This document shows positions 56,009 to 58,208 of a stretch of DNA of 64,000 bases, piece after piece. A program made the translations under genes and the position numbers. The first letter of the stretch is position 1, and each line of letters opens with the position of its first letter. Source of the stretch: a virus (taxonomy: Duplodnaviria; Heunggongvirae; Uroviricota; Caudoviricetes); the IMG/VR virus record IMGVR_UViG_2778261574_000002; one strand, given 5' to 3'. The notes beneath the pieces are model-generated. The model searched no databases, was not told where the DNA came from, and saw only the letters and a list, made by a program, of their open reading frames with translations.

Positions 56009-56084
56009 TGGTGGCCCCTACCGGACTTGAACCGGTGACCGTGCGATTATGAGTCGCCAGCTCTAACCACTGAGCTAAAGGGCC
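56009..56084 (-). tRNA. tRNA-Ile2 (anticodon CAU, lysidine-type)
   Basis: GGCCCTTTAGCTCAGTGGTTAGAGC..GACTCATAATCGC..GGTTCAAGTCC..CCA, very close to E. coli ileX; CCA encoded. Confidence 0.85.
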
Positions 56085-56111
56085 GGATTACTGCCAATTT
56101 TGCTTACGCTT

Positions 56112-56939
56112 TTATTTCACCGGAACAAACGGAACAGCGGTATTACTGGTCATATACTGCGGTAATGTACCGTTCCATTTGTTGATCGCTTCCAACTCCA
56201 TAACACCGGGGTTCTGGCGCAGAGCTTCACCACGTAAACGAATGGCATCAGCTTCGGCCTGGGCTTTTGTGCGAATAGCATCAGCCTGTCCGGCAGCTTC
56301 CGCGCGCAGCATGTTGGCCTCTGCTTCACGTTGTTTGACCTCTTGCTCGCGTTGCAGGGTTTTTTGGTTTGCCGTGACTTTGGCGTTAATACTGTCAATA
56401 ACTGTTGGCGGGTATTCTGGCTTACCTACATAAGAGAGGCTCATCACCTGAATGCCGATTGGCGTCATTTCTTCCTGAATGTCTTTAAGGGCTGCATCAA
56501 GCAATTCGGATTTGCCACCGTCGATAAATTTGTCGGTTGTCATTTTGCTGGCTAACCGGTTCAGAGCATCTGCAACCTTCTGGCGTAGATCGGTATCAGT
56601 AATATCATCTACACCTTTGCGATAGGTCTGAAATACCGTTGTGACTTTTGCTGGATCAACCTTGTAGGCTACGCCGATGTGGTAACCAATGGTTGTTCCG
56701 TCGCTCATCTGGAAGCTGAACGGCTCATCGTATGTCTTCATTTGCTTAAAGGTCGGGAAGATATAAACTTCAGTATTCAAGCCTGTCCAGTAGCGACCAA
56801 CGCCAACTACTTCACCGATACCTTTATCATCCCCCAGCTTATTTACTTTGATCCCTACGTTACCTGGCTCTACCCGATCGCATCCGGTCAGACATAAAGA
56901 ACCCAAAATAATCGCTGCACTAATCAACGTTTTTTTCAT
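56112..56939 (-). CDS. plp: SPFH/band-7 domain lipoprotein
   Basis: lipobox LTGC after signal peptide; SPFH body and Ala/Glu-rich coiled-coil tail. Confidence 0.7.
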   Translation of the reverse strand: MKKTLISAAIILGSLCLTGCDRVEPGNVGIKVNKLGDDKGIGEVVGVGRYWTGLNTEVYIFPTFKQMKTYDEPFSFQMSDGTTIGYHIGVAYKVDPAKVTTVFQTYRKGVDDITDTDLRQKVADALNRLASKMTTDKFIDGGKSELLDAALKDIQEEMTPIGIQVMSLSYVGKPEYPPTVIDSINAKVTANQKTLQREQEVKQREAEANMLRAEAAGQADAIRTKAQAEADAIRLRGEALRQNPGVMELEAINKWNGTLPQYMTSNTAVPFVPVK

Positions 56940-57156
56940 TAATTAATTTCCTGGTTTTTTCACGAAAAAAGACTACTGCGAAAGCTGGGTAAATGAGCGC
57001 GAGAAGGACTCCCAACAATACAAGTATTGTGCTGTTAGATGAGATCATATTTGGCAAAAGCCAAACATACAGAACCAGTGACACAATCAAACAGAGGACG
57101 GCATAAATATATAACCGCACCCATAGCGTTCGACATTTGTTCGGATTGTTCTGCAT
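56920..57156 (-). CDS. small membrane protein upstream of plp
   Basis: 78 aa with two hydrophobic helices. Confidence 0.45.
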   Translation of the reverse strand: MQNNPNKCRTLWVRLYIYAVLCLIVSLVLYVWLLPNMISSNSTILVLLGVLLALIYPAFAVVFFREKTRKLINEKNVD

Positions 57157-57419
57157 CCTCTCACTCCATTATTTAACGAATAAAAAAGCTGCGGTGCCGG
57201 GTACCTCCCGGTGTCCTTTGGCTGGTTATCCACCGTGGACGGGGAAACAAGGAGAAATGAATGGACTGATATAACCATTTCCCCGCGTGCGCTTAGCCGC
57301 ATTCACCGCAATGGTAAGAGCACTTGGCTGGCTGGGCGGCGATGACGCCTGTACGCATTTGGTGATCCGGTTCTGCTTCCGGCATTCGCTTAATTAGCCA
57401 AATACTCTTAACGTTGCGC

Positions 57420-57506
57420 TGGCGGAGAGTAATGGAATCGAACCATCATCGCTTGCGCTATGGGACGGTTTTCAAGACCGCTTGAGCACCATGCTCCCTA
57501 CTCTCC
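57420..57506 (-). tRNA. tRNA-Ser-like (anticodon UGA), class II
   Basis: 7-bp acceptor stem, anticodon loop CTTGAAA, long variable arm, T-loop GGTTCGATTCC, CCA encoded; D-arm atypical. Confidence 0.5.
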
Positions 57507-57959
57507 CGTTATTGTGGCGACCGGTGCTGATCTCCGGCTTGCGGTTATTTCAGACTCTCACGGGCGTTTAATTGCCCCGCCGAACAGCTCTTTTCCGCAA
57601 TAGCTGCAATGTCTTTCGCGCATCAGCCTGCGCATTCACCACAACGTTGAGAACACTGGTTGTCACGCGCAACGCAACATTTATTCGTAGATTGGGATAT
57701 GACCCCGTTACGCCAGTGTTCTCAACGTTGTAGTGCCGGTTACGGTTCCGGCCAGGCCTCTTCCTCAACGGGGTGTTCTCCATACGGACTACCGTTTATT
57801 GGTCGTTCCTGCGGTTTATGTTGTGAAGCCAGATGCTTATCTTCTGGTTGCTTCAAAGAGCTGCACTTCATCACAACGGTAAGAGCATTTATGGCTCGCA
57901 TCGCGGGAAAAAGCCCACGGTAGAGAGTCGAACTCTACAAATGCTCTTACCTGTTGTGT

Positions 57960-58035
57960 TGGTGCCGGTTAACGGGATCGAACCGCTGACCATTCGCTTA
58001 CAAAGCGACTGCTCTACCAACTGAGCTAAACCGGC
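57960..58035 (-). tRNA. tRNA-Thr (anticodon UGU)
   Basis: GCCGGTTTAGCTCAGTTGGTAGAGC..TTTGTAA..GGTTCGATCCC..CCA. Confidence 0.85.
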
Positions 58036-58039
58036 AATT

Positions 58040-58126
58040 TGGTGGGGAGTGATGGAGTCGAACCACCCGAGTCGCAATGACAGTAGATTTACAGTCTACC
58101 CCGCTACCCCTACGGACTAACTCCCC
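58040..58126 (-). tRNA. tRNA-Tyr (anticodon GUA), class II
   Basis: anticodon arm GTAGACTGTAAATCTAC as in E. coli tyrT, long variable arm, acceptor GGGGAGT/ACTCCCC, CCA. Confidence 0.75.
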
Positions 58127-58131
58127 TAAAT

Positions 58132-58208
58132 TGGCGATGGTGGGTGGATTCGAACCACCGACCGACAGCTTAGAAGGCTGCTGCTCTATCCTACTGAGCT
58201 ACACCATC
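58132..58208 (-). tRNA. tRNA-Arg (anticodon UCU)
   Basis: GATGGTGTAGCTCAGTAGGATAGAGC..CCTTCTAAG..GGTTCGAATCC..CCA, similar to argU. Confidence 0.8.

Follow-up and report, generated by a model that had tools for sequence, protein, structure and literature searches.

Why should a phage-plasmid keep tRNA genes between a repressor-controlled operator and a helicase gene, and what kind of genes are they? The question is raised by positions 56,009-58,208 of a 64,000-nucleotide stretch of viral DNA (IMG/VR record IMGVR_UViG_2778261574_000002, Caudoviricetes), hereafter the window. The window is part of a P1-like phage-plasmid, and the positions in question belong to its C1-repressed ban transcription unit. 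A first-pass annotation, made from the sequence alone, had placed five tRNA genes here and had suggested that they compensate for codon usage. The observation is confirmed, and in outline the interpretation was correct. What the present analysis adds is a predicted fold of the 8/4 type for tRNA-Ser, a tRNA-Arg gene that appears to have been rebuilt from a tRNA-Asn gene, and a quantitative match to codon usage; neither the rebuilt gene nor the 8/4 fold was part of the earlier reading. The role that we consider probable is codon supply on derepression of the ban unit, by five working tRNA genes of mosaic origin.

Five tRNA genes on one strand

ARAGORN, run over the whole 64-kb window, returned exactly five tRNA genes and none besides, all on the minus strand. 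Their identities and outer limits (56009-58208) are those of the first-pass annotation, the Tyr, Arg and Ser-like calls included. In order along that strand they are tRNA-Arg with anticodon UCU (58132-58208; 72.1 bits with the Rfam tRNA model, RF00005), tRNA-Tyr with anticodon GUA (58040-58126; 41.9 bits), a class II tRNA with discriminator A73, tRNA-Thr with anticodon UGU (57960-58035; 67.2 bits), tRNA-Ser with anticodon UGA (57420-57506) and tRNA-Ile2 with anticodon CAU (56009-56084; 64.7 bits). Arg, Tyr, Thr and Ile2 had been taken for canonical tRNAs, and all four exceed the gathering score of RF00005 (29 bits) and form a 7/5 cloverleaf. The encoded CCA ends were verified in the gene sequences, in five of five. 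The remaining gene had been described as Ser-like, of class II and with an atypical D arm; RF00005 reported no match to it, and in a permissive Rfam search its best match was the model for selenocysteine tRNA (tRNA-Sec, RF01852), at 41.8 bits against a threshold of 47.

The tRNA region is 100% identical to plasmid pAVS0578-B of Escherichia coli AVS0578 (NZ_CP124376), on which the Prokaryotic Genome Annotation Pipeline (PGAP) of RefSeq names the same five genes, in the order tRNA-Arg, Tyr, Thr, Ser, SPFH protein, tRNA-Ile, dnaB. About 80 complete E. coli genomes hold at least 80% of the 1.1-kb tRNA stretch, and 84 PLSDB plasmids have the Arg gene with an identity of at least 95%. Reference P1 had been said to encode three tRNAs, which agrees with its annotation (NC_005856): only Asn, Thr and Ile are found there. 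The five-gene set is thus absent from reference P1, yet it is common, and already annotated, in sequenced P1-like plasmids, and its novelty is therefore small. Phage tRNA clusters are common and this one is labelled in RefSeq; as first stated, the finding was a correct but modest annotation.

Judged by its sequence, the set is one of several mosaics that occupy this slot, built on the set of reference P1. In phage vB_EcoM-Ro157c2YLVW (hereafter Ro157c2) the slot holds Asn-Tyr-Thr and a CAU tRNA, in RCS47 Asn-Thr and a CAU tRNA together with the SPFH gene, and in D6 Asn-Thr-Ser, the Ser gene and its flanks being common to D6 and the window. The D6-like plasmid pYU39_89 carries Asn, Thr, Ser and Met tRNAs (PMC6799933).

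The Arg gene appears to be an Asn gene rebuilt in place

The same slot is held in relatives by a tRNA-Asn of P1-family/Cyrano type, with which tRNA-Arg is identical in the acceptor stem (14 of 14 positions, and G73), the D stem and the T arm (17 of 17). The anticodon arm has another affinity: it matches the Arg gene of rV5 at 15 of 17 positions and the Asn gene at 8. The D loop, AGUAGGAUA, agrees with that of argU, AGUUGGAUA, at 8 of 9 positions, A20 being present. In E. coli the identity elements for arginyl-tRNA synthetase (ArgRS) are A20, C35, U36 or G36, and A or G at position 73. The Arg gene has A20, C35, U36 and G73, with the anticodon UCU, and folds into a clean cloverleaf on which the minimum-energy and centroid structures agree.

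This gene was found in no record of a 50,697-genome phage collection, in which full-length matches reach at most 83% and the best are all tRNA-Asn. Plasmid and provirus records alone hold it: in addition to the PLSDB plasmids, three unique variants (five copies) occur among the IMG/VR loci fetched. Its central 44 nt are 90-95% identical to phage tRNA-Arg(UCU) genes. An exact donor of this patch was found neither in the phage collection, whose best match, from an unrelated crAss-like phage, covers 42 nt at 95% identity, nor among the Arg(UCU) genes that stand beside a tmRNA-like element (see below) in T1-like phages. Arrival of a whole Arg-Tyr block from rV5-like phages was rejected for Arg, as the rV5 gene has an overall identity of only 70% and the Asn type is seen in both acceptor stem and T arm.

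These comparisons suggest that tRNA-Arg derives from the Asn gene that the P1 family has in this slot, which received another D loop and another anticodon arm and so changed its identity to Arg in place. As the replaced patch, of about 30 nt, comprises the D loop and the whole anticodon arm, the switch was probably made by gene conversion from an Arg gene and not by point mutation. The P1 family would thereby gain a clear, datable case of a change in tRNA identity by exchange of these two parts.

The Ser gene is predicted to have an 8/4 fold

Inspection by eye and folding both gave the Ser gene an acceptor stem of 8 bp, GGAGAGUA/UACUCUCC, which leaves a T stem of 4 bp (AUGG/CCAU) and so a 12-bp acceptor branch. 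The eighth acceptor pair is present in the minimum-energy and in the centroid fold. The D arm, GAGCA-UGG-UGCUC, has a 5-bp stem and a 3-nt loop; the variable (V) arm, AUAGC-GCAA-GCGAU, has a GCAA loop, and the discriminator is G73.

Homologs were found in 362 phage records, among them rV5-like phages, Jiaodavirus, Justusliebigvirus, Klebsiella phages of about 110 kb, a Pseudomonas phage, P7 and Cyrano; the gene is 86% identical to the rV5-like Ser gene and 64% to host serT. A scan of IMG/VR gave 66 unique relatives, all with UCN anticodons and with A at position 8, whose D stems (4-6 bp, with loops of 3-5 nt) vary by strand-swapping changes. In an alignment of 45 sequences of the family, 97% of the cells are paired, compared with 78% in shuffles, and covariation is 0.56, compared with 0.19. 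Double-sided changes were seen in all four D-stem pairs counted and in four of five anticodon-stem pairs. The T-stem helix is 96.7% paired across the family, although its sequence was partly fixed by the search pattern.

Because the pattern of that scan admitted only U opposite position 8, a second scan was made that required any other base there. In the pooled 90 unique sequences, position 8 and its partner form A-U in 58, G-C in 27, U-A in 2 and C-G in 1, with 2 mismatches, and this covariation supports the 8-bp acceptor stem. The rival 7/5 fold, with G49-U65, was rejected: its pair (49:65) is Watson-Crick in only 18 of the 90, and where the partner is not U, position 8 changes along with it and position 49 does not. 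The anticodons of the 90 are UGA (64), CGA (15), AGA (9) and GGA (2), and the discriminators G (71), U (18) and A (1).

In its acceptor stem, T stem, tRNA-Sec-like D arm, V arm with G73 and serine anticodon, the gene agrees with the (8/4) tRNA-Ser of Mukai et al. (2017; NAR, PMC5389517). Those tRNAs came to light in bacteriophages, proteobacteria and Clostridia as sequences that narrowly failed the tRNA-Sec model; they combine G73 or U73 with a D arm like that of tRNA-Sec, and in E. coli they are efficient at inserting serine. On these features the Ser gene appears to be of this known kind and to represent a large phage-borne family. By analogy, it would be charged by seryl-tRNA synthetase (SerRS) and used by EF-Tu and the ribosome. 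An 8/4 fold would also explain why standard tools stumble on this tRNA; a curator's note in the D6 record says that tRNAscan-SE could assign it no amino acid. The Ser tRNA that has been "uncallable" in P1/D6-type plasmids and in many phages of enterobacteria would then be an 8/4 tRNA, and that of the window a natural example of the fold that is tractable in E. coli.

Two arms of a perfect 18-bp inverted repeat, CAACGTTGAGAACACTGG and CCAGTGTTCTCAACGTTG (57713-57730 and 57642-57659, minus strand), lie 53 nt apart between tRNA-Thr and tRNA-Ser. The repeat is common to D6 and Ro157c2, and in the latter an insertion of about 160 nt stands immediately before it.

The Ile2, Thr and Tyr genes

Modification of CAU tRNAs by TilS depends on the pairs C4-G69 and C5-G68. 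The Ile2 gene has the CAU anticodon on an ileX-type body and keeps both pairs; it is 100% identical to trnI of P1 and 89.5% to ileX of E. coli. It would read AUA after lysidine modification of C34. The Thr gene is 87% identical to trnT of P1, 97% to its counterpart in Ro157c2 and 77% to host thrU, and Ile2 and Thr both appear to be P1 genes.

The Tyr gene is 100% identical to that of Ro157c2, 92% to that of rV5-like phages and 69% to host tyrU. The closest relatives of Tyr and of the 8/4 Ser outside the P1 family are in rV5-like virulent phages, where 4 nt separate Arg from the neighbouring Tyr and Ser comes next. Import of Tyr from rV5-like phages is plausible, given the 92% identity. Between its acceptor stem and D stem, tRNA-Tyr has a 4-nt linker, UAGU, instead of two nucleotides, as has the rV5-like tRNA-Tyr.

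The anticodons match codons that the phage over-uses

Codon usage in 51 long, non-overlapping open reading frames (ORFs) of the window (16,097 codons) was compared with that in 47 equivalent ORFs of E. coli K-12 (2.40-2.45 Mb). AGG, which a tRNA-Arg(UCU) may read weakly, is the most over-used of the 61 codons (3.7-fold). The codons read by the phage tRNAs follow closely: AUA (Ile2) is over-used 3.6-fold and ranks second, ACA (Thr) 2.4-fold and fifth, UCA (Ser) 1.9-fold and sixth, AGA (Arg) 1.8-fold and seventh. Four of the five cognate codons are thus in the top seven, for which the hypergeometric probability is about 3e-4, with a cut-off that was picked after seeing the data. The Tyr codons are not notably enriched (1.2- and 1.0-fold), and the idea of codon compensation is supported for Ile2, Thr, Ser and Arg but does not fit Tyr. 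The codons of the replaced Asn gene are weakly enriched (AAU 1.4-fold, AAC 1.1-fold). In E. coli K-12 the isoacceptors with anticodons UCU, UGU and UGA have a single gene each, and Ile2 has two.

Upstream of the cluster, where dmt has its 3' end, lies Oban(ab) (58867-58894), formerly Op72, a bivalent C1 operator which the ban promoters overlap. It consists of a perfect 17-mer, ATTGCTCTAATAAATTT, at 58878-58894 on the minus strand and an overlapping partner with two mismatches at 58867-58883 on the plus strand; such matches were found 0 times in shuffled sequence. The feature is annotated in reference P1 (NC_005856), and its sequence there is identical in alignment. The first-pass annotation was right that a perfect C1 operator is present; that it sits "just upstream" has to be qualified, as it is about 670 nt from tRNA-Arg and an intrinsic terminator lies between. 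The terminator, a hairpin with a cUUCGg loop followed by a run of seven T (58701-58682), separates the ban operator from everything downstream, the tRNAs included. A scan for consensus promoters was negative from the terminator to the tRNAs, and a promoter at that place was rejected on this ground. Transcription of the tRNAs would thus need read-through or a promoter of a kind that the scan does not recognise.

As four of the top seven codons are matched, codon supply upon derepression is the best-supported mechanism. When repression is lifted, the tRNA genes between the operator and the helicase gene would be expressed from Pban. Derepression would then add tRNAs for the A-ending codons AUA, ACA, UCA and AGA, which are much commoner in phage than in host genes, and the Asn gene would have been swapped in place for an Arg gene reading AGA and AGG, so that a tRNA for weakly enriched codons was replaced. 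With codon supply as the role, the switch from Asn to Arg is an improvement. Expression from Pban, charging by ArgRS and SerRS, the lysidine of Ile2 and a benefit to translation are all presumed in this mechanism, and the match to codon usage is directly testable in a P1-like plasmid.

Several observations weigh against it. The Tyr gene is left unexplained. CGA (2.9-fold) and AAG (2.7-fold) are more enriched than AGA, and no phage tRNA reads either. Reference P1 grows well on only three tRNAs. The terminator stands between the operator and the tRNAs, with no consensus promoter after it. Lastly, the host sample was 50 kb of K-12 and not of the natural host strain.

The ban unit around the tRNA genes

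The five tRNA genes, a 78-codon ORF, the SPFH gene and ban are on one strand, downstream of the bivalent Oban with its perfect site, as in annotated P1. As a terminator intervenes, the place of the tRNAs on the ban transcript is inferred from the succession and strand of the genes and from the annotation of P1.

The operator overlaps the 3' end of dmt, which encodes a bifunctional methyltransferase (58885-61149). Between the Ser and Ile2 genes are the 78-codon ORF (56920-57156, minus strand), which overlaps the start of the SPFH gene and encodes a hydrophobic product with no Pfam match, named "membrane protein" in the annotation of Ro157c2, and the gene for an SPFH/Band-7 lipoprotein of 275 residues (56112-56939, minus strand) with the lipobox L-T-G-C. 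The latter had been noticed before as lying among the tRNAs, which Pfam (PF01145, Band_7, E=1e-30) and PGAP bear out; compared with P1 and RCS47, it fills the place held by tciABC in reference P1. Last in the unit is ban, for a DnaB-type replicative helicase of 456 residues (54359-55729, minus strand; Pfam DnaB and DnaB_C, and P1 annotation).

Upstream of the 78-codon ORF, a stretch at 57190-57310 (minus strand) resembles STnc100, an enterobacterial small RNA family, below threshold (35 bits against a gathering score of 47; E=3e-5). Six more 17-mers similar to the C1 operator, with one or two mismatches, are at 11091, 26788, 26871, 42434, 48200 and 62400 of the window; none is expected by chance, and they are consistent with the dispersed C1 operators of P1.

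A tmRNA-like element in the leader

The terminator (58682-58701) ends a stretch that is labelled "dicF-like region" in P1 (about 58677-58778, minus strand), and it is conserved in P1, Ro157c2, RCS47 and D6. We rejected the identity with DicF, since the Rfam model for this RNA had no match in the stretch at E<=1. The leader of about 470 nt that extends from the terminator to tRNA-Arg is nearly invariant in P1, RCS47, Ro157c2 and D6; in P7 and SJ46 its core is 96-99% identical.

This core (58495-58671, minus strand) is the most interesting thing in the region. It resembles transfer-messenger RNA (tmRNA), with the sequence GTTTTCG, a GGTTAGCGAC block, a tag frame and two pseudoknot-like units. 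The tag frame (58613-58581, minus strand), GCA AAC GAT GAT CTG ATG ATG GTA GCG GCC TAA, encodes ANDDLMMVAA followed by a stop, and its context, AAAU|GCAAACGA (AAAT| in DNA), is invariant. The tag of E. coli tmRNA is ANDENYALAA.

With blastn, the core (~58671-58495) was found at 70-85% identity, and unannotated, in 334 phage records, which include Ackermannviridae (Vi1-like), Schitoviridae (Gamaleyavirus; N4/G7C-like), Drexlerviridae (T1-like), a Vibrio siphovirus and an Acinetobacter phage. Our homolog set consisted of loci L261-L266 and about 100 loci of IMG/VR (L267-L373). The tag frame is kept in register in an alignment of seven phages, and in all 136 of the 136 instances from IMG/VR and the other loci it has exactly ten codons and a stop. 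It begins with GCA as a resume codon would and ends in ...AA or VA before the stop, which is TAA or TAG. There are 18 peptides (e.g. ANDDVVLMAA, ANEEMYLAVA and ANDEQFLAVA) among 32 distinct tag DNA sequences, and variation is greatest at third codon positions, with synonymous changes. The downstream pseudoknot-type stem covaries.

Programs for tmRNA detection gave little. Against a threshold of 47 bits, the Rfam model tmRNA_permuted gave the window 24 bits and six unrelated phages 19-33 bits. ARAGORN found no tmRNA at its default, -ps and -ps90 thresholds and called a permuted tmRNA with this tag only at the 80% threshold. A T arm with a complementary 7-nt strand and NCCA was sought within 900 nt on either side and not found; nor was an acceptor/T-arm/CCA unit complementary to the conserved 5' GTTTTCG, other than the ordinary neighbouring tRNAs. 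Local alignment of the element to E. coli ssrA extended over only 15 nt, and a T-loop-like TTCGATT of the window is TGTGATT in P1. After ARAGORN, the ssrA alignment and the search for a T arm and CCA, we rejected a tRNA-like domain for the element.

In 74 of 135 instances the element is followed by tRNA genes of the same strand, for the most part at a distance of 300-600 nt. In P1-like members these are Asn or Arg, with or without Tyr, and Thr; at loci not of the P1 type they are mostly Arg(UCU) and a CAU tRNA, Vibrio phage pYD38-A being an example. These units are bracketed by a long-stem module, GGTAAGAGCATT...AATGCTCTTACC (pattern GGTAAG(A/G)GC...GC(T/G)(C/T)CTTACC). The window has two copies on the minus strand, GGTAAGGGCGCTG...CAGCGTCCTTACC at 58419-58486 (-31.6 kcal/mol, z = -4.5) and GGTAAGAGCATTT...AAATGCTCTTACC at 57878-57951 (-33.9 kcal/mol, z = -5.8). 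The second encloses a T-arm-like hairpin, GTAGAG-TTCGACT-CTCTAC (57938-57920), and its insert varies among members of the P1 family. The closing-stem motif follows the tmRNA-like core in T1-like phages, and a nearly identical module is directly upstream of the tag region in the IMG/VR locus L346.

At positions 310-380 of locus L261, from Escherichia phage PD38, about 115 nt upstream of the tmRNA-like core, is a tRNA-like gene that has no anticodon arm. It has an acceptor-like stem of 8 bp with one mismatch, a D-like hairpin of 6 bp with a 4-nt loop, and a T arm, GCTGG-TTCGAAT-CCAGC; CCA is not encoded. The tRNA-Sec model gives this gene 26 bits, and it could represent an acceptor piece encoded apart.

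A tmRNA database paper of 2025 lists 79 phage tmRNAs, found by ARAGORN and BLAST (PMC11915505); our literature searches retrieved no description of a phage tmRNA-like element of this kind. We tentatively entertain, as a possibility below even chances, that the tRNA cluster and the tmRNA-like RNA form a conserved phage module that keeps translation going by rescuing or re-programming stalled ribosomes. If so, it might act, for example, after host defences have cut tRNAs or mRNAs, and the 8/4 Ser and the rebuilt Arg would be adaptations of this kit and not plain codon fillers. The by-product of this work may matter more than the tRNAs: an RNA that appears to code for a tag, in the long-known "dicF-like" leader of P1, and that is common to many virulent phages.

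Other roles for the tRNA genes

That Tyr stands outside the codon pattern makes a role in anti-defence possible, though we think it unlikely. The tRNAs, Tyr above all, would replace host tRNAs that are cut by defence systems or colicins: retron-Eco7 or Septu PtuAB acting on tRNA-Tyr, anticodon nucleases, or colicin D, whose target is tRNA-Arg. Together with the neighbouring tmRNA-like RNA they would be a kit that keeps translation running, with which it agrees that tRNAs follow the element in over half of its instances across phage families. The tRNA-Tyr of T5-family phages does rescue them from retron-Eco7, whose PtuAB effector degrades tRNA-Tyr (PMC11555353), and Septu cleaves the variable loop of tRNA-Tyr (PMC13096335). 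The Tyr gene of the window, besides its likeness to the gene of virulent rV5-like phages, has a D region and V arm unlike those of host tyrU, and the 8/4 Ser is very unlike host serT. However, in Arg, Tyr, Ser and Ile2 the anticodon loop is that of the host and only that of Thr differs (U32 for C32), so that any anti-defence role would be by supply and not by resistance to cleavage; none of the loops is mutated in the way described for phage tRNAs that resist nucleases. Codon supply accounts well for four of the five anticodons.

It is improbable that the cluster is neutral cargo of a recombination hot spot, a by-product of exchange among phages with little or no selected function and with some genes perhaps inactive. 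Because tRNA genes share conserved D- and T-arm sequences, they recombine easily, and the slot is indeed a mosaic in the P1 family (Asn-Thr, Asn-Tyr-Thr or Arg-Tyr-Thr, with or without Ser) with differing protein cargo (plp/upl/tciABC or SPFH), while the breakpoints of the Arg chimera are at its D loop and V loop. Yet the stems are intact in all five genes, each with its encoded CCA; the chimera gained exactly the ArgRS determinant A20 along with its new anticodon and is nearly invariant in the 84 plasmids; every stem of the Ser family has compensatory changes, and the anticodons match the codon bias of the phage.

That the Ser-like gene does not decode, being a pseudogene, a relic of tRNA-Sec or a regulatory tRNA-like RNA, is very improbable: the failure of RF00005, the sub-threshold tRNA-Sec score, the missing amino acid in the D6 record and the label "tRNA-OTHER" that PGAP gives to some copies are outweighed by at least 90 unique family members with UCN serine anticodons only, by the pairing of 97% of cells with every D-stem pair doubly changed, by the covarying eighth acceptor pair and by the long V arm, G73 and encoded CCA, and 8/4 tRNAs decode in E. 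coli (PMC5389517); we rejected a pseudogene or tRNA-Sec relic on the family-wide covariation and the exclusively serine anticodons.

Codon supply on derepression thus stays the reading that we prefer, with Tyr outside its reach.

Comparison with known systems

The closest system is the ban operon of reference P1, whose order is dmt, Oban with the ban promoters, the "dicF-like region", trnA (Asn), trnT (Thr), plp/upl, tciABC, trnI (Ile2) and ban. Its location after dmt and Oban, the conserved leader and the succession of tRNAs, cargo genes, trnI and ban are shared with the window; Ile2 is identical, the leader nearly so, and Thr similar. The window differs in that Arg(UCU) stands in the Asn slot of P1, Tyr is inserted between Arg and Thr, and there is an extra Ser(UGA). 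The cargo differs as well: the 78-codon ORF and the SPFH gene are on the same strand as the tRNAs, whereas P1 has tciABC and plp/upl, the latter on the opposite strand.

The Arg gene recalls tRNA gene remoulding (alloacceptor shift), which is known mainly from organelle genomes. In both, the amino-acid identity is changed in place, with a new anticodon on the old acceptor stem and T arm; the Arg gene of the window differs in having exchanged about 30 nt as a patch, which points to gene conversion as opposed to point mutation.

With the (8/4) tRNA-Ser and the allo-tRNA class, the Ser gene shares the 8-bp acceptor and 4-bp T stems, a D arm that, as in tRNA-Sec, has a long stem and a very small loop, an extended V arm, G73 and the serine anticodon; like them, it surfaces as a near-miss of tRNA-Sec and occurs in bacteriophages. 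The D stem in the family of the window is of 4-5 bp with a loop of 3-5 nt, compared with a 6-bp stem and a tetraloop in tRNA-Sec.

Like the tRNA-Tyr of the T5 family, that of the window is a phage-borne class II tRNA-Tyr(GUA) with the anticodon loop of the host and could act by supply. It differs in that its closest relative outside the P1 family is the rV5-like gene, and in its position behind a repressor-controlled promoter.

Lastly, phage tRNAs reportedly serve in codon-usage compensation, an idea put forward by Bailly-Bechet and colleagues in 2007. The tRNAs of the window conform to it in matching codons that phage genes use often and host genes seldom, but they do so in a temperate phage-plasmid, with a small set of tRNAs, and with Tyr outside the pattern.

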